A stretch of DNA of 32,000 nt from Mesoplasma florum L1 (GTDB lineage Bacteria > Bacillota_I > Bacilli_A > Mycoplasmatales > Mycoplasmataceae). The DNA lies in assembly GCF_000008305.1 (NCBI RefSeq), contig NC_006055.1:510001-542000 (forward strand), read 5' to 3'. The notes beneath the pieces are model-generated. The model had not been told where the DNA came from. It worked only from the letters and a program-made list of their open reading frames with translations, and did not search any database. The position numbers were made by a program, and so were the translations under genes. Positions 8,513 through 23,958 of this stretch are shown here, piece by piece; within the stretch, counting starts at the first letter, position 1, and every line of letters begins with the position of its first letter.

Positions 8513-11500
8513 TTAGTTAGAATATTTATCTGAAATTATTGAGTATGAGAATATAGAAAGAGCTTCTGATTCTGGTTCTTCACCATTACCTGAGTCTGTT
8601 GATCAAGTTACAACAAAAGTTACTTTAGAACCATCAACAACTTTATCTGAACCTTTTCCTGTTATTTCAACACTTGTTGTTGCTTCATCATCAGTACGAG
8701 CAACTGTAAAGTCTACATAATCAGTTCCATTTACTAATCCAGCTGCAGTTAACACAGTTTCAATTTGTGTTTTAACAGTTGAAACATCATTTCCTTTAGC
8801 AGCTGAAATTTTTAAATCATCAGCTTTAATAATATCTGCTAAATCTTTTGAAAAGTCTGTTGATCAAGTTACAACAAAAGTTACTTTAGAACCATCAACA
8901 ACTTTATCTGAACCTTTTCCTGTTATTTCAACACTTGTTGTTGCTTCATCATCAGTACGAGCAACTGTAAAGTCTACATAATCAGTTCCATTTACTAATC
9001 CAGCTGCAGTTAACACAGTTTCAATTTGTATTTTAACAGCTGAAGCATCATTTCCTTTAGCCGCTGAAATTTTTAAATCATCAGCTTTAATAATATCTGC
9101 TAAATATTTTGAAAAGTCTGTTGATCAAGTTACAACAAAAGTTACTTTAGAACCATCAACAACTTTATCTGAACCTTTTCCTGTTATTTCAACACTTGTT
9201 GTTGCTTCATCATCAGTACGAGCAACTGTAAAGTCTACATAATCAGTTCCATTTACTAATCCAGCTGCAGTTAACACCGTTTCAATTTGTGTTTTAACAG
9301 CTGAATCATCATTTCCTTTAGCAGCTGAAATTTTTAAATCATCAGCTTTAATAATATCTGCTAAATCTTTTGAAAAGTCTGTTGATCAAGTTACAACAAA
9401 AGTTACTTTAGAACCATCAACAACTTTATCTGAACCTTTTCCTGTTATTTCAACACTTGTTGTTGCTTCATCATCAGTACGAGCAACTGTAAAGTCTACA
9501 TAATCAGTTCCATTTACTAATCCAGCTGCAGTTAACACAGTTTCAATTTGTGTTTTAACAGTTGAAACATCATTTCCTTTAGCAGCTGAAATTTTTAAAT
9601 CATCAGCTTTAATAATATCTGCTAAATCTTTTGAAAAGTCTGTTGATCAAGTTACAACAAAAGTTACTTTAGAACCATCAACAACTTTATCTGAACCTTT
9701 TCCTGTTATTTCAACACTTGTTGTTGCTTCATCATCAGTACGAGCAACTGTAAAGTCTACATAATCAGTTCCATTTACTAATCCAGCTGCAGTTAACACA
9801 GTTTCAATTTGTGTTTTAACAGCTGAAACATCATTTCCTTTAGCAGCTGAAATTTTTAAATCATCAGCTTTAATAATATCTGCTAAATCTTTTGAAAAGT
9901 CTGTTGATCAAGTTACAACAAAAGTTACTTTAGAACCATCAACAACTTTATCTGAACCTTTTCCTGTTATTTCAACACTTGTTGTTGCTTCATCATCAGT
10001 ACGAGCAACTGTAAAGTCTACATAATCAGTTCCATTTACTAATCCAGCTGCAGTTAACACAGTTTCAATTTGTATTTTAACAGCTGAAACATCATTTCCT
10101 TTAGCAGCTGAAATTTTTAAATCATCAGCTTTAATAATATCTGCTAAATCTTTTGAAAAGTCTATTGATCAAGTTACAACAAAAGTTACTTTAGAACCAT
10201 CAACAACTTTATCTGAACCTTTTCCTGTTATTTCAACACTTGTTGTTGCTTCATCATCAGTACGAGCAACTGTAAAGTCTACATAATCAGTTCCATTTAC
10301 TAATCCAGCTGCAGTTAACACAGTTTCAATTTGTATTTTAACAGTTGAAACATCATTTCCTTTAGCAGCTGAAATTTTTAAATCATCAGCTTTAATAATA
10401 TCTGCTAAATCTTTTGAAAAGTCTGTTGATCAAGTTACAACAAAAGTTACTTTAGAACCATCAACAACTTTATCTGAACCTTTTCCTGTTATTTCAACAC
10501 TTGTTGTTGCTTCATCATCAGTACGAGCAACTGTAAAGTCTACATAATCAGTTCCATTTACTAATCCAGCTGCAGTTAACACAGTTTCAATTTGTGTTTT
10601 AACAGTTGAAACATCATTTCCTTTAGCAGCTGAAATTTTTAAATCATCAGCTTTAATAATATCTGCTAAATCTTTTGAAAAGTCTGTTGATCAAGTTACA
10701 ACAAAAGTTACTTTAGAACCATCAACAACTTTATCTGAACCTTTTCCTGTTATTTCAACACTTGTTGTTGCTTCATCATCAGTACGAGCAACTGTAAAGT
10801 CTACATAATCAGTTCCATTTACTAATCCAGCTGCAGTTAACACAGTTTCAATTTGTGTTTTAACAGTTGAAACATCATTTCCTTTAGCAGCTGAAATTTT
10901 TAAATCATCAGCTTTAATAATATCTGCTAAATCTTTTGAAAAGTCTGTTGATCAAGTTACAACAAAAGTTACTTTAGAACCATCAACAACTTTATCTGAA
11001 CCTTTTCCTGTTATTTCAACACTTGTTGTTGCTTCATCATCAGTACGAGCAACTGTAAAGTCTACATAATCAGTTCCATTTACTAATCCAGCTGCAGTTA
11101 ACACAGTTTCAATTTGTGTTTTAACAGCTGAAGCATCATTTCCTTTAGCAGCTGAAATTTTTAAATCATCAGCTTTAATAATATCTGCTAAATTTTGTGA
11201 AGAATTACCAACTCTAGCTTTTACACTAAAATCATTTTTTCCTTCAATTACATAATTTTCTTTAAATGTAACAGTAAATTTAATTGTTTCATCGTTTCAG
11301 TCTTTTGGTGTTTCTGTTGGATAAATAACACTATCAACACCAGTAATAGCTTGTACTGCATTTGTAATATCTTCTTGAGCTGCTTCAATGTTTGCATATG
11401 ATTTTCCGTTAATAGCAACTTCAGCCGCTGTTTGAATATCACTAGCTAAAACTTTATATGATTTTCAAGTATGAGGTAAAGTTACATCTCCTGTATAAAC

Positions 11501-12931
11501 AAATTCGTTTTCATCATTAGAATTACCAATAAATTTTCATTCTTTTGTATTTTTTACTACATTTGAATTATCATCTTTTAACAGAATAACTTCCTCTACT
11601 GTAATTTGCCCTTTATTAAATTCAGTATCAACAGCTTTTTGCAATTCATCTAGAGTTCATGTTTTTTCTTCATAATCTTTATCCTTTAAGATAGTTTCTA
11701 ATTCATTTTTAATTGTACTTATATTGGCAGTAACTTTATAATCATGAGTAACTTTAAGTTCTCCTTGATATTGTTTGTTATTTTCTTTTGAACCTTGACC
11801 TGTAATAACAAATTTTTCTGTTTTTTTACCTAGTTCAGAATTATCATAAGTTACAGTTGAATCATCTTCAGTAACATCAAATTCTTCAGAACCATATTTA
11901 GTATTTAATGCAGATTGCAATCCATCTTTAGTTCAAGCTTGATTTTTATGTGCTTCATCATTAACAAAACTTGTTAATTCTTGTTTAAATTCTTCATTAG
12001 TTGATATATCTGTTCTTGACATTAAATTTACAGTAACTTCTACTGTGTTAGTTGTTTGTTCTAAAACATAACCAGTTGATAATGTTAAAGTAACTGTAAA
12101 ACTTGATTTATCATCTTCAACAGATTTATTATATTTAGCCTCAGCTTTTTCAATACCTTTAATTCCTGTTGGTTCTGCATCACTTGCTGCTTCTTTATAA
12201 GCAAATGCAGCTTCAATAGCTGATTTAGCAGCTTCTTTATTATCAAATTTATCGTGATTTGCTAAATCAGTAACAACAGTATTTATTTGTGCATTGCTAA
12301 TTACAGTTTGTTTTGTATATGTATGAGTTAATGTTATTTCACCTATATACTTTAATGTATTTTCTGGATCTGTTGTTGCATTACCTGTAAATGTAAATTC
12401 AGCTTTTTTCTTTGTTTCACCAGTATAGTTATTATCGTCACTATAAGTTCCACCAGAAACTGCTATTTCACCATTTCCAAATTCAGAATCTATCTTAGTT
12501 TGTAAATCAGTAACAGTTCATTCATCATGAGGTTTTTCAGATAGAATGCTTGTCAGTCTTGTTGAAATAACTGAAATATCTTCAGCTTTATTATCTTTTA
12601 CTTCATAAGTTTGAGTTAATGTTAATTGACCTGTATATTTTTTATTATTTGCTTTAAATATAAATTCAGCTTTAGCTATACTTGTTACTTTAGTATAGTC
12701 TTTAAATGAAACTGTAATTTCACCTTCACCAAATTCAGTATCTACTTTTTTTTGTAATTCTGATACATCTCATTTTGCATCAGTTTTTGATTTTAAAATT
12801 GCTTCCAATTTTGATTGCAAGATTCTAATATCGTTTTGCTTTTTCTTGTCTGCATTAGCTATAGCTACACCAGCTACAACAACGTTTGTTGTTAATGTAA
12901 CAACCACTAATAATGCTAATAATTTTTTCAT
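8513..12931 (-). CDS. 1472-aa surface protein: signal/anchor peptide, several ~75-aa mollicute-lipoprotein-type modules, then 10 tandem 87-aa repeats
   Basis: ATG 12931: MKKLLALLVVVTLTTNVVVAGVAIANADKK… (hydrophobic signal, no lipobox Cys). The length of 4419 nt is divisible by 3 and includes track ORF 11657..11920 in frame. The repeats have no Met and one TGA each, which explains their absence from the track. The gene ends …VTWSTDSGNGEEPESEALSIFSYSIISDKYSN* at TAA 8513-8515. Confidence 0.85.
8594..11193 (-). repeat. 10 tandem copies of a 261-bp (87-codon) unit, near-identical
   Basis: The marker gatcaagttacaac recurs at 8601, 8862, 9123, 9384, 9645, 9906, 10167, 10428, 10689 and 10950, exactly 261 bp apart. 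Unit: DLADIIKADDLKISAAKGND[V/A/D]S[T/A]VK[T/I]QIETVLTAAGLVNGTDYVDFTVARTDDEATTSVEITGKGSDKVVDGSKVTFVVTWSTDFSK. Confidence 0.97.
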
Positions 12932-13043
12932 ATAAACCCCCATATTTAATTGTTTTTTTACAATAAATACTCCAATTTTAGATTATTAATTCAAAAAAAA
13001 CTCCAAAATGGGAATTTTTTCGTCTTTTTTTATTGAATTTACC

Positions 13044-13083
13044 AAAAAAAAAAAAAAAAGGCCAAAAACACTACTTTTTGACC
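13044..13083 (-). terminator. hairpin + T16 module (minus strand), 112 nt upstream of the large surface-protein start codon
   Basis: The plus strand shows A16 (13044-13059), then ggccaaaaa-cactac-tttttgacc (8 of 9 bp stem). On the minus strand this is a GC-clamped hairpin followed by T16, i.e. intrinsic-terminator architecture with an unusually long homopolymer. Confidence 0.6.
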
Positions 13084-13117
13084 CTTTTTTGACATTAAAA
13101 TAAGCTATAACCATAGG

Positions 13118-13335
13118 TTAAAAAATAGCTTTTTTATCACTAATTAAATATACTAATGATCAAATTCAACTAAAAATATTAATTGATATTACTGATGTAA
13201 CTATAAATAGTATTTAAATAACTCTATTTTTAGATAATTTTAATCTTCATGCAAATATTATATTTAATAAATTAATAGCAGTTAAACTAGTTGCAACAAT
13301 TACTATAATCATCATTATTTGATTAAAGTAAGCAA
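13118..13335 (-). pseudogene. 3' remnant of an 'INLLNIIFAW' family membrane-protein gene, cut off by the IS and carrying internal stops
   Basis: …FNQIMMIIVIVATSLTAINLLNIIFAWRLKLSKNRVI*ILFIVTSVISINIFSWI*SLVYLISDKKAIF* aligns with the C-terminus of the intact gene 19927..20652. There are two TAA/TAG stops inside, and the upstream part is replaced by IS sequence. Confidence 0.75.
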
Positions 13336-14856: not shown

Positions 14857-17580
14857 TTAATTATTTTCAGGAAATTTTGGTTGTCTTTCCTTGGCTCAAT
14901 TTCCCCCTTGATGATAAAAATTAGCAAAATATTCAACATTTTTAACATCTCAATTAGAAATATCAACATTAAAAGCTTGAGCACGATAAAACATATAACT
15001 CATGTTAGTTACACTTGAGATATTTCATTTTGAAATATCTTGATTAAAAGCTTGAGCACCAAAAAACATACTACTCATATCTGTTACCTTTGATGTATCT
15101 CATGCTACATATTTTTCATTATTTTTTTCTACTTCTTTTGTTGAAATATCACAATTAAAAGCTTGAGCACCAGAAAACATATTACTCATGTTAGTTACAC
15201 TTGAAGTATTTCATTTTGAAATATCACCATTAAAAGCATAAGTTTCAGAAAACATACTACTCATATCAGTTACTTTTGATGTATCTCATGCAACATATTT
15301 TTCATTATTTTTTTCTACTTCTTTTGTTGAAATATCACCATTAAAAGCTTGAGCACCAGAAAACATACTACTCATATCAGTTACACTTGAAGTATTTCAT
15401 TTTGAAATATCACCATTAAAAGCTTCAGCTTCAGAAAACATACCACTCATATTAGTTACTTTTGATGTATCTCATGCAACATATTTTTCATTATTTTGAT
15501 CTACTTCTTTTGTTGAAATATCACCATTAAAATTTTGAGCACCTAAAAACATATTACTCATGTCAGTTACACTTGAAGTATTTCATTTTGAAATATCACC
15601 ATTAAAAGCATAAGTATGATAAAACATATTACTCATATCAGTTACTTTTGATGTATCTCATGCAACATATTTTTCATTATTTTGATCTACTTCTTTTGTT
15701 GAAATATCACCATTAAAAGCTGAAGCATCAGAAAACATACTACTCATGTTAGTTACACTTGAAGTATTTCATTTTGAAATATCACCATTAAAAGCATAAG
15801 TATGATAAAACATATTACTCATATCAGTTACTTTTGATGTATCTCATGCAACATATTTTTCATTATTTTGATCTACTTCTTTTGTTGAAATATCACCATT
15901 AAAAGCTGAAGCACGAGAAAACATATTACTCATGTCAGTTACACTTGAAGTATTTCATTTTGAAATATCGCCATTAAAAGCATAAGTATCAGAAAACATA
16001 CCACTCATGTTAGTTACACTTGAAGTATTTCATTTTGAAATATCACCATTAAAAGCTGAAGAACCAGAAAACATATTACTCATATCAGTTACTTTTGATG
16101 TATCTCATGCAACATATTTTTCATTATTTTGATCTACTTCTTTTGTTGAAATATCACCATTAAAAGCTTGAGCACCATAAAACATATTACTCATGTCAGT
16201 TACACTTGAAGTATTTCATTTTGAAATACCAAAATCCACAATATCACTTTGTGCAAAAATTCAATTCATATTAGTTACATTCGAAACATTTCAACCTGAT
16301 AAGTCAATATTACTAAATGTTGTAAGTTTGAATGTTCCTTCCATGGAATTTACATTTGAAGTATCTCATTTTTTGATATCACTTAAATGATCTCCAGAAT
16401 TAGAATTAGCATAAAATAAATAGTTCAAAGATTTTATGTTTTCATTTAATTTATTTGGATAAACTATATCCTCTGAAAAACGAGTAAAAATGTTTATTGG
16501 TTCATTATTGTCTTCTTCAAAAAATATTCCACAAACTTGACCATTATTATATCAACCAAACTCGATTATTTCAGTAAATTCAATTTCATCTCAATCTTTA
16601 GAACTTGTTCCTTTAAATTCTTTGCTATGGATATTTTCATCTTTATCTATTTTATAAAACATAAGTGTTGAATTTAAAACTGTTTTTATTTTAAATTCGC
16701 CATCAAATTCTGATTTTCATTCATAGTTATGGGTGTTTAATGATACTTTTATTGTAATTTCGTGCTCCTTATCTCATTCCACTTCTCCTAATTTTTTAAT
16801 TTCAATCTTTGGTTCAGTTGTTAAATCAGGATTTATTATTTTATTGAAAGTTTCAATAATAGCTTTTTTAGCTTCACTCTCATCATATTCTTGAAGAATA
16901 GCTGATTTAAAAGATTTTTCCATTACATTTTGATCAATTTTAATAACTTTAGATACTGAAATATTCACATTAAATTTACCTTCAAATGATAAATCATCTC
17001 AAACATAATTTTCTTCGAGCATTACTTTAACTTCAAAAGTTTTTTCCTCAAATGCATATGATGTTAATATTTTAGCTTCAACAGTTTTAATTCCAGAAAC
17101 ATTTTTTAATGAATTATTAAGTTCAGCAATAGCTTCATCCTCAGTTAAATTTTTACCCTGAATTGATTCATTTAACATAGTTTGAATTTCTTCTTTTTTA
17201 ATGACATCATAAGTTCCAACTTTTGCTGAAACTGTGAATTCACCATTAAATGATAAATCATCTCAAATATAATTTTCTTCGAGCATTACTTTAACTTCAA
17301 AAGTTTTTTCCTCAAATGCATATGATGTTAATATTTTAGCTTCAACAGTTTTAATTCCAGAAACATTTTTTAATGAATTATTAAGCTCAGCAATAGCTTC
17401 ATCTTCAGTTAAATTTTTATTCTTAATAGATTCTTCTAATTTCTTTTGTATTTCATTCTGATCAATTTTATTATAAGCAGGGGGTTTATTTAATTTTTTC
17501 ATCGACTCATAAGAAACAATTCCTGTAAGAACACTTGCTGTTAAAGATAAAACAGCTAATAATTGTAATAATTTTTTCAT
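14857..17580 (-). CDS. 907-aa surface protein with BspA-like / DUF285-type 26-residue repeats
   Basis: Track ORFs 17263..17580 and 16774..16968 are in the same frame as stop TAA 14857-14859. The signal peptide is MKKLLQLLAVLSLTASVLTGIV. The C-terminal two thirds consist of …F.ga.aFNGDISKWNTSSVT[DN]MSNMF… units, the 'bacterial surface protein 26-residue repeat' (DUF285) common in the mycoides cluster and Entomoplasmatales. One TGA occurs per unit. Confidence 0.85.
14930..16390 (-). repeat. array of about 26-aa DUF285-type units organised in a 186-bp (62-aa) higher-order repeat
   Basis: The marker ttgttgaaatatcac recurs at 15138, 15324, 15510, 15696 and 15882 (spacing 186 bp), then at 16143 (spacing 261 bp, one extra unit). 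Confidence 0.9.
16975..17500 (-). repeat. 2 x 264-bp (88-aa) tandem duplication in the N-terminal part of the DUF285-like protein
   Basis: aaatcatctcaaa[c/t]ataattttcttcgagcattactttaacttcaaaag occurs at 16991 and 17255. The repeated peptide is …KNLTEDEAIAELNNSLKNVSGIKTVEAKILTSYAFEEKTFEVKVMLEENY[IV]WDDLSF…. Confidence 0.9.
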
Positions 17581-18456: not shown

Positions 18457-19274
18457 TTTATCTCCTTTTATTTCCTTTTCATTTTGTTATTTTTTTGTTG
18501 AAATCCTGATTAAAAGTTTTGTTTTCTTTATTTTTATAAAGTAAAATTAAGTTTTTATTTTATTTAAATATTCACTAATATTCTAATTAAATTCATTAAT
18601 TTAGTAAAACCTGGAGAAGTAAGGGCTAGGAAATTTTAAACTAATATATTATTATATAAATTGAATCTTCTTTAAAGATTTTTTCATGTATTTTTTTATA
18701 TATAATAATAATTAATTTAGCACGATATAGGTTTTTTCACTTCTTTAAGACTAGATTCTGAACTATAAACTCCACTAGCTCTTAAAGTATGAAATGTTAG
18801 TTTTTATTAAATTTTGGTTTTGTGTTTAAATGATCCTATATGAATAAAATTTTATTTAAACTCAATGTTTTGGTAGATATTTTACTAAAATACTTTCAGA
18901 TACTAAAGAAATAATATTGCAATTAAAAAAGCTAAAAGTAGAATCATTATTTCTATTTATTTTGATAACATTCTTCAGAAAATTAAAATTTTGTGAATTA
19001 ATTTTTCAATTTATTTTGAAGATGATAATTAATTTATAATAAAGCCCATATTTTAAATAAATGCTCATTTTACTATCCACCTTTATTTTTTAAAGATCTA
19101 AAAGTTTAGTAAACTTAATTAATAATTATTTTTGTGTAAATTTTATTTTTTAAGTTACTGTTTGCTACTTTCAATTCTTTAATTTCTAAAAGATATAATT
19201 TATGCTAGGTATTTTTTATATATAGTAATCTTTATAATAAATACACTTATAAGGTGGTTATTTATAATGTTAGC

Positions 19275-19312
19275 AAAAAAAAAAAAAAAAGGCAAATTAC
19301 CTAATAATTTGC
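19275..19312 (-). terminator. orphan hairpin + T16 module (minus strand) with no convincing gene on either side
   Basis: Plus strand: A16 (19275-19290), then g-gcaaatta-cctaa-taatttgc (8-bp perfect stem). Same architecture and same tract length as 13044 and 23892. Confidence 0.55.
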
Positions 19313-19926
19313 TTATTCAAGAAACCTTTCCTCAAATTCCAACACACAAAATGTATTATTTGCCAATCACTTAAATTATGATTTTAATTTTTATTGATGC
19401 TTGAAATACATTTTATACAACAATAACATTTAAAAAAGAAATATTTCATCATGTTTGAAATTTTGATACTCTAATAAATAAGAATTAGTATCTTGTTTGA
19501 ATATATAATAATTTCGAACATGAAAAATATTATGGATGCTTTTAATTTTGCAAAGCAAAAAACAATTGAGTCTTTCACAAAATACTATAAGTTTTATAAG
19601 TAAAAGTTATCTTATAAAATCTTTTAATAATATATGTTATTACTTGTTTTTTGGTATGTCTCTAACTATATTTTTTATAAACCTAATTTATTAAAGGTGC
19701 ATTACCTAGTCCTGAATTACATCCAAATAAAATTGCTCTTATATAATTATTTGGTAATTCTACTTGCCATCTTTAAAAAAATTTTATGAGAAATATTTTA
19801 AAACAAATTCAAAATAATTTAAATTGATAAATTAATATTTATTAAAATATTGAATATATTTTCTAATCTTTTTCTTTATTATATTTTTAAAATATATTTA
19901 AAACTATTAAATTAAAAAATTATATT

Positions 19927-20652
19927 CTAAAATACTTCTTTTCGATCATTAAATAAATATACTAATGATCCAATTCAGCTAAAGATATTAATTGATAATA
20001 CTGATGTAATTATAAATAGAATTTTAATTACTTTATTTTTAACTAACATTAATCTTCAAGCAAAGATAATGTTTAATAGATTAATTATAGTTACACTAGT
20101 TGAAACAATTACTATAATAAACATAATTTCATTAAAGTTATCTAACTTTAACTTTTTAATTAAATCTCTTAAGAAATCTAAATTAACATTATCAGGAATT
20201 TTAATTTCACCAAAGTCTAAGAAGTCATTAATTAATTTTACAAAATCATCTTTTGGTAATATTTGATTAAATAAATCCTTAACTTCTTGAGCCGATAGTG
20301 TTACAACTTCATTTTTAATTTTTACTGTTATATCACCTTTTAAGCTATCTAATACTTTTTGATAAATCTCTTCAGGATTAGTTTTATCTTTAACTGTTTG
20401 TATTGCATCATTGATCAATTTCTCTATATTAGTCTTTAAATCTTTTTCTAAATTATCAACTAAAGTTATAAAGTTTTCTTGACGTATATAAATAAAAATT
20501 AAGATAGAAATTAAAGAAAACATTATTAGTCCAATAATTGTAGTAGAAGAACCAAATAAGTTAAGTAGAATCCCATTCTTTCTACGTATGACTTTTTTAT
20601 TAAATTTCTTTTCCTCTTTTGAAGGTTTTTGCTTAATTACTTTTTCTTTCAT
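19927..20652 (-). CDS. membrane protein of the 'INLLNIIFAW' family (intact copy, 241 aa)
   Basis: Track ORF 20056..20652 (MKEKVIKQKPSKEEKKFNKKVIRRKNGILLNLFGSSTTIIGLIMFSLISILIFIY… has a basic N-terminus and a TM helix). It reads through TGA: …FIIVIVSTSVTIINLLNIIFAWRLMLVKNKVIKILFIITSVLSINIFSWIGSLVYLFNDRKEVF*, ending at TAG 19927-19929. Confidence 0.75.
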
Positions 20653-23795: not shown

Positions 23796-23891
23796 TATTT
23801 ATCCCCTTTTCTTATTAAATATTAAAAGCAAGAAAAATCTTACCTTGCATAAATTATAAAACTAAATTTTTTCAAATTGTGAGTTTGGAAT

Positions 23892-23939
23892 AAAAAAAAA
23901 AAAAAAAGCAAAATTTTGGAAAAAATTCTCAAAATTTTG
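23892..23939 (-). terminator. hairpin + T16 module (minus strand), 96 nt upstream of the lipoprotein start and just after the upstream membrane-protein stop
   Basis: Plus strand: A16 (23892-23907), then g-caaaattttg (23909-23918), loop gaaaaaattct, caaaattttg (23930-23939), a 10-bp stem. Confidence 0.6.
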
Positions 23940-23958
23940 ATCTTTTTACTCTTTTTGG

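Follow-up and report, generated by a model that had tools for sequence, protein, structure and literature searches.

In the 32,000-nucleotide window of Mesoplasma florum L1 that we analysed (NC_006055.1, 510001-542000), positions 13044-13083 most plausibly act as an intrinsic terminator or as an insulator that marks off, on its upstream side, the promoter block of mfl444, a gene for a giant surface protein. We give this reading a probability of roughly 0.6. As a terminator, the element would have an unusually long U-tail and would border the conserved mfl444 promoter and leader block on its upstream side. Its main job would be to stop transcription coming from upstream, such that mfl444 is expressed solely from its own promoter. 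The first-pass annotation of this DNA had offered a terminator or insulator, a length-dependent expression switch, or both; the terminator side of that proposal has gained support, while no promoter was found where the switch would need one at this site. The question is of practical interest, as M. florum serves as a chassis for minimal-genome work and synthetic biology, with promoters that have no -35 box and whose determinants of strength are not understood.

The window has a GC content of about 24%, and its long open reading frames exist only under genetic code 4. On the minus strand, the terminator stem-loop GGTCAAAAA-GTAGTG-TTTTTGGCC occupies positions 13060-13083 and is recognizable from its sequence, including one G.U pair. 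Directly at the base of the stem begins a run of 16 T (13044-13059, A16 on the plus strand), and this combination of stem-loop and U-tract is the one expected of an intrinsic terminator. In the RNA the stem could be extended further by pairing of the A stretch at 13085-13090 with the first U's of the tract. The predicted fold has an energy of -16.0 kcal/mol with a z-score of -3.4, and a terminator scan detects the hairpin. Past the tract follow GG and the hexamer TAAATT (together 13036-13043, the hexamer at 13041-13036), a -10-like box with a TGn-type extension in which the A5 position of the TAWAAT consensus is broken. The succession of hairpin, T16 and, 112 nt after the tract, the ATG of mfl444 had been read from the letters at the outset and is confirmed on the sequence (start codon 12931-12929). 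The same is true of two more T16 runs on the minus strand, at 19275-19290 and 23892-23907 and here called sites 2 and 3, each of which is preceded by an inverted repeat and G/C. Rfam and tRNA scans at the three T16 sites gave no match.

Published 5'-RACE, RNA-seq and terminator data for L1 (Matteau et al. 2020, PMC7745072) were read onto the window to relate the element to mapped transcripts. A window coordinate equals the L1 coordinate minus 510000; this conversion was verified against the letters of the window at one -10 box, one TSS and one terminator tail, and coordinates match across rplU, peg.444, peg.447/mfl444 and peg.451-463 (PMC7745072 datasets). The mfl444 gene (peg.447; 8513-12931, minus strand) encodes a secreted repeat protein of 1472 aa behind the ribosome-binding site GGGGG at 12937-12941. 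It reaches an FPKM of about 1248, and the protein is detected (PMC7745072 data). Repeats of 87 aa, nearly identical to one another, occur about ten times in the product, and there seems to be no basis for the 'chitinase' label that RAST gives it.

These data contradict the idea that TTGGCC-T16-GG-TAAATT is the mfl444 promoter. The -10 box has the sequence TAAAAT and lies at 12975-12980, with experimental support (Dataset EV1 of PMC7745072, row 522974-522980), and 5'-RACE places the TSS, an A, at 12968, with an RSPM of 628 and a 5' UTR of 37 nt. The real promoter and TSS are found 63-76 nt downstream of the tract, which in turn covers positions -76 to -91 relative to the TSS. Datasets EV1, EV3 and EV4 of PMC7745072 (the TSS, TU and orphan-TSS tables) hold no TSS or -10 coordinate of the form 5230xx, and TAAATT next to the site-1 tract is therefore no detectable promoter in L1. 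The first-pass annotation had named a transcription start mapped well downstream as an outcome that would speak against a promoter role, and this is nearly what the data give, with the mapped promoter and start beginning 63 nt past the tract. Thus, the giant L1 surface protein is not driven through T16, and a vlp-like switch is not to be assumed from sequence resemblance alone. The promoter in use has a region of its own on its upstream side that is rich in A-tracts (13001-13035, minus strand), with A7 at -63..-57 and A6 at -52..-47. Across the region 5' of the TSS, A/T tracts are phased at about 10.5 bp with centres at -28.5, -38.5, -49.5 and -60. A T8 run at 12993-13000 (-25..-32 of the real promoter; minus strand) is T9 in BARC 787 and MQ3, and constitutes a second, shorter length-polymorphic tract that lies nearer to the active -10 box than T16 does.

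Comparison between strains shows to which side the hairpin belongs. Exact matches to ribosomal protein L27 were found in ten genomes, seven of which (CP022505, -06, -08, -09, -10, -12, -14) belong to the M. florum strain set of Baby et al. 2018 (PMC5893858). The site-1 hairpin is kept in BARC 787, GF, W23, MouA-2 and MQ3, and in BARC 786 its loop is inverted. The tail measures T15 in BARC 787, T16 in GF, T17 in W23 and MouA-2, T14 in BARC 786 and T7 in MQ3. Variation in tract length, which had been suspected from the homopolymer itself, is thereby borne out between strains, and the length is 16 in the L1 reference and in three later L1 assemblies. MQ3 combines this hairpin with no more than T7, which shows that a tail of normal length is viable in that strain. 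Between strains, homology breaks off where the hairpin begins on its 5' side (window 13083-13090) and the upstream genes differ, so the hairpin travels with the downstream gene block and not with the upstream genes. W20 has a divergent upstream neighbour and is missing both hairpin and tract, and it keeps the leader from cccattttggag to the ATG with the TAAAAT promoter. In the strains with an upstream stop codon on the same strand, the distance from stop to hairpin is 30 nt (BARC 787), 76 nt (W23) and 73 nt (BARC 786). As far as sequence can tell, an insulating terminator tied to the block of genes downstream would be expected to leave just such a strain pattern.

Several details of the locus deserve mention in their own right. 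The inverted loop of BARC 786 (L007 2491-2513) is a reverse complement, cactac instead of gtagtg, within a retained stem, and looks like a hairpin 'flip' inversion. BARC 787 (L001 1869-4576) and GF (L006 2049-4756) carry genes for an OLD-family ATPase/TOPRIM protein and a UvrD-like helicase immediately 5' of the hairpin. The two genes make up a Gabija-like defence pair, and the locus is therefore a variable island of defence and surface genes. In L1, the only same-strand 'gene' 5' of the hairpin is the decayed 3' end of an mfl448-type 241-aa gene (13129-13329, minus strand), which has visible stop codons and is 83-86% identical to the 3' ends of the 241-aa gene in other strains. Intact 241-aa genes are present upstream of the giant-gene block in other strains. 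A gene of this length, 241 aa, also precedes another long tract of L1, that of peg.32.

Rho is absent from M. florum, and RNA-seq signal drops where hairpin terminators are predicted in its genome (PMC7745072). In this context, the terminator or insulator reading is supported by the hairpin with its U-tract, the lack of Rho, the same-strand stops 30-76 nt upstream in other strains and the absence of the element from W20, and we infer that termination occurs at site 1. For L1 as a whole, 298 intrinsic terminators of the de Hoon type have been predicted (PMC7745072); site 1 is absent from that list (Dataset EV2) because no gene is annotated upstream. The element shares with intrinsic terminators of Firmicutes and Mollicutes the short stem-loop with a U run, the A-rich stretch on the 5' side, the orientation along the strand of the flanking genes and the Rho-free setting. 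It differs from the L1 terminators in having 16 T instead of the usual 5-8, and in its hairpin, which in evolution has stayed with the block of genes downstream and not with the gene upstream. What argues against a terminator role is that L1 offers little to terminate: upstream of the hairpin lie the pseudogene remnant and a few silent small ORFs, where BARC 787, W23 and BARC 786 have a same-strand stop codon. The early remark that 6-9 U are enough for termination stands, and, to our knowledge, nothing in termination theory calls for a tail longer than about 9 U.

The length of the tail can be judged against other homopolymers. A/T runs in the window tail off at a length of 8, and the only longer ones are the three of 16. 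A first-order Markov model of the window predicts 0.0075 A-runs of at least 16, and 3 are seen; about 18 runs of 9-15 are expected, and none is seen. A dinucleotide shuffle on T14 words, which is cruder and weaker, reaches the observed count in 1 of 100 shuffles. Unique T runs counted over about 270 kb of DNA from the M. florum group number 1399, 623, 224 and 56 at lengths of 5, 6, 7 and 8, followed by two runs of 9, one of 10, none of 11-13, one each of 14 and 15, six of 16 and one of 17. All nine long runs in this DNA adjoin a hairpin, compared with 12% of all runs. On the basis of the length distribution and the hairpin adjacency, the long tracts are a distinct class, tightly centred on 16. 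Their 3' flanks are also distinctive. A TAWAAT-like hexamer 1-2 nt past the tract accompanies six of the nine unique long tracts and 10 of 279 hairpin-associated short runs (Fisher 8e-7), and one of 53 gene-end terminators has such a hexamer directly past its tail. G is the next base in 7/9 long tracts versus 27%. The genes on the 3' side of long tracts mostly encode signal-peptide or lipoprotein products. The long tracts are not described in the M. florum literature that we searched.

The first-pass annotation counted three T16 tracts. All three are present in the window, but the L1 terminator table lists three further terminators whose U run measures 16 or more, and in total about 6 of about 300 L1 terminators are of this kind. 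Two of the additional tracts abut a functional promoter. Behind the pgi terminator (at least 16 U), TAGAAT lies within 5 nt and a TSS with an RSPM of 212 follows 7 nt later; the gene behind this tract, mfl255, encodes an ABC ATPase whose RNA is stable in six replicates, and the tract between the two genes has a length somewhere within 16-21. Similarly, the malate-permease terminator (at least 16 U; mfl378 to mfl377) has TACAAT within 3 nt and a TSS with an RSPM of 220, and mfl377 encodes a prolipoprotein. Behind the third, the peg.32 terminator (peg.32 to PTS), the tables of PMC7745072 hold no mapped TSS. The architecture of a tract abutting a promoter, which had been proposed for site 1, is hence right for the class, with a mapped -10 box and TSS at two other L1 tracts, but not for site 1 itself. 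Active abutting boxes retain A4-A5-T6 of TAWAAT, from which the silent boxes depart, with TAAATT at site 1 and TAACAT at site 2; the broken consensus suffices to explain their silence, with no need to invoke tract length. The position of the tracts relative to mapped TSSs is not uniform either, with -17..-34, -46..-61 and -76..-91 all represented, so no single promoter-element role fits all members. The erratic RNA-seq replicates of mfl377 (2124, 31, 7, 2, 2, 2) were considered as a sign of phase variation and set aside, since housekeeping genes such as trmB scatter alike.

A relative provides a natural comparison for the pgi junction. In M. grammopterae ATCC 49580 (L015 11283-11330), pgi is 98% identical to that of L1, and both the ABC cassette mfl255-256 and the hairpin, T-tract and promoter are absent; pgi is followed directly by the terminator that ends the ABC cassette in L1. 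With cassette and tract missing together, the module travels with the accessory cassette. M. grammopterae was the sole relative returned by a contig scan with the pgi N-terminus, and a pgi protein search returned no M. florum entry. The ABC paralogue P0052 was rejected as a candidate for the same locus because it lies at a different one.

The other two T16 sites in the window differ strongly from each other. At site 2 (19275-19312, minus strand), the hairpin GCAAATTA/TAATTTGC (19292-19312) is followed by C and T16 (19275-19290) and then by GC and TAACAT (19267-19272). Its fold is weak, with a centroid energy of -7.1 kcal/mol and a z-score of -0.45. The PMC7745072 tables give neither a TSS nor a predicted terminator here, and there is no gene for about 800 nt downstream. 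A blastx search with 1.5 kb of downstream sequence found no decayed gene, and exact-protein look-ups with the 77-aa and 52-aa ORFs nearby gave no match. Site 2 is part of a region of about 1.5 kb (18457-19926) with 18-21% GC, no convincing ORF and no homologue in the loci of other strains. The flanking genes mfl447 and mfl448 are near-silent (FPKM 0.3 and 3) despite a strong TSS 5' of mfl448 (RSPM 527). Site 3 (23892-23956, minus strand), on the 3' side of mfl452, is a long A/U-rich hairpin followed by T16 (23892-23907), with a fold of -18.2 kcal/mol and a z-score of -3.8. RNA folding at sites 1 and 3 pairs the A-rich stretch 5' of the stem with the T tract. The main TSS of the lipoprotein gene mfl451 lies at 23846, behind a perfect TATAAT at 23853-23858 with no -35 and no TGn, and the tract falls at -46 to -61 of this TSS. 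With 78,912 read starts and an RSPM of 11,335, it is by far the strongest among the about 35 rows seen, in which the next values are 9,294, for a TSS with no motif, and 3,362. The gene has an FPKM of about 13,900 and about 4,800 protein copies per cell. An exact-protein look-up of the lipoprotein gave no match, and a contig scan with it found no relative. We see in this promoter with its T16 (23846-23907) a candidate UP-like element of natural origin and a strong part with which to engineer M. florum.

Exactly 16 T occur at five independent loci, which points to selection on length, something that a plain terminator does not explain. Membership in a class of compact terminator-promoter junctions may be the reason why the element at site 1 has retained the extra 7-8 T's; in such a class, the T run would serve both as U-tail and as T-rich DNA directly 5' of a -10 promoter without -35; TAAATT would then be a weak or decayed copy of the abutting box. 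We tentatively extend this to a more general proposal, to which we attach clearly less confidence than to termination itself: runs of about 16 T might be a selected, length-constrained dual element, namely a terminator U-tail and the DNA that activates -35-less promoters from upstream. Hairpin and run together could constitute a portable 'insulated expression boundary' that borders cassettes of accessory and surface genes on their 5' side, where slippage would lead to an occasional heritable change in expression level. If this were true, the junction would offer a compact natural part that combines insulator and promoter, with the tract as both terminator tail and promoter-strength element, and could account for the exceptional output of the mfl451 promoter.

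A related but rather doubtful explanation puts the weight on activation alone. Here, the rigid 16-bp dA:dT tract would be a UP-element or curved-DNA enhancer, or a substitute for the -35 box, that boosts -35-less promoters of highly expressed surface and membrane genes, its use as a U-tail being secondary. Classical UP elements sit at about -40 to -60, and E. coli rrnB P1 is an example of a strong promoter with a UP element or upstream A-tract curvature. The site-3 tract occupies this position in front of the exceptionally strong mfl451 promoter, and like these systems it places A/T-homopolymeric DNA 5' of a very strong start. The four mapped TSSs on the 3' side of long tracts (RSPM 212, 220, 628 and 11,335) all rank within the top third of the about 35 values seen, although these RSPM values are a non-random handful of rows. 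Two tracts, at -17..-34, stand directly 5' of active -10 boxes, and the helical phasing of the A/T tracts 5' of the mfl444 TSS fits as well. Site 1, however, at -76..-91, lies beyond any known direct contact of RNA polymerase; W20 and MQ3 retain the promoter without a long tract; and two L1 tracts, at site 2 and between peg.32 and PTS, have no TSS downstream. Moreover, a pure T16 is unlike the mixed A/T consensus of UP elements. A UP-like activating role is thus attractive for site 3 and possible for the tracts abutting -10 boxes, but by position it does not suit site 1, for which the terminator reading is preferred.

The tracts might also be neutral by-products, which we consider improbable. 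With no mismatch repair, a T-tail that drifts past about 9 T would expand by slippage to a mutational equilibrium length and have no function beyond its first 8 T's. The bimodal length distribution with its empty 11-13 class would fit such a process, as would the T7 and T14-17 alleles that share the same hairpin, the very high indel rate of M. florum (PMC4978911) and site 2, with no gene, no TSS and no obvious role. A random walk, however, should give broad lengths, and 16 T are found at five independent loci with 14-17 at a sixth; drift also leaves the excess of -10-like boxes at +1/+2 and of G after the tract unaccounted for, and the tract is constant at 16 in L1 across independent data sets.

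Similarly small is the chance that the tract acts as a phase-variable switch of the vlp type, in which T16 would space the two elements of a promoter TTGGCC-T16-GG-TAAATT and slipped-strand events that alter the length of the tract would turn the surface protein on and off. The proposal has an evident appeal. The orthologous tract varies between strains, mfl444 downstream encodes a hypervariable surface protein, and in PMC4978911 M. florum has the highest indel rate of all prokaryotes listed. Switching by spacer length is established for vlp, maa2 and vmm (PMC2268961), and T16 plus GG would make an 18-bp spacer, one above the canonical 17. At site 1 it is nevertheless unsupported, because the TSS lies at 12968 and is served by another -10 box, 63 nt past the tract, with no TSS on record for the TAAATT beside the tract. 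Even W20, which has no module, keeps that downstream promoter with its leader, M. florum promoters have no conserved -35, and the hexamers 5' of the tracts, read by eye, share no -35 consensus across loci. Furthermore, independent loci cluster at exactly 16 with no scatter over ON and OFF lengths. Data from L1 itself point in the same direction: three L1-derived Logan read-set assemblies are 100% identical to the window with 16 A at site 1, and the consensus length has been 16 since the 2004 reference, this being an assembly consensus in which minority variants are invisible. A fourth assembly, ERR2531096, has a contig break inside the site-1 tract with 17 A, which leans the other way. We know of no ON/OFF phenotype in M. 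florum, and phase variation via tract length is unproven. A sequencing or assembly artefact was rejected, as the same lengths appear in the 2004 Sanger genome, the Illumina/PacBio genomes and the Logan assemblies.

Known tract systems of related organisms place the preferred reading, a terminator whose long tail belongs to a class of junctions, in a wider frame. In M. agalactiae, a poly-T lies immediately 5' of the vpma -10 box and was shown not to phase-vary (Flitman-Tene 2003, as cited in PMC2268961). M. florum likewise has a coding-strand T run adjoining a -10 box 5' of surface lipoprotein genes, and the exact relation, a T run within a few nt of a functional -10, recurs at pgi/mfl255 and mfl378/mfl377 and is not found at site 1. 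The differences are that the M. florum tract doubles as the U-tail of a terminator and that the abutting box at site 1 is not an active promoter. With the poly(A) of vlp in M. hyorhinis, maa2 of M. arthritidis and the (TA)n of vmm in M. mycoides, the M. florum tracts have in common a slippage-prone stretch of about 16-18 bp 5' of a -10-like hexamer, beside variable surface-protein genes, and M. florum is the sister lineage of the mycoides cluster. In contrast to these switches there is no -35 partner, the TSS lies elsewhere and the L1 consensus length is stable. The tract-promoter junctions of M. florum resemble the vpma poly-T, and the vlp, maa2 and vmm switches less closely.

Some minor observations concern other parts of the window. 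In the read set SRR9399841, two contigs (L011 3160-3186 and L099 1-27) carry the same foreign 27-mer AGCTGAAGCTCCAATGTGGTGGAATTC joined to window positions 20079 and 12125; these joints are probably transposon-insertion junctions in L1 mutants. The 130-aa product of mfl442 (7292-7684, minus strand) starts with MQKLKVDELKDIKGG and looks like a double-glycine leader peptide, as in a class II bacteriocin or peptide pheromone precursor; the gene adjoins rplU in all strains and has erratic RNA-seq counts (0, 4213, 0, 0, 3, 10). Upstream of rplU, an ordinary L21 leader (Rfam RF00559, 41.5 bits) lies at 7135-7214 on the minus strand. Finally, the 907-aa product of mfl446 (14857-17580, minus strand) contains DUF285/PARCEL repeats, and mfl446 is the only PARCEL ORF of L1 (PMC2996958).
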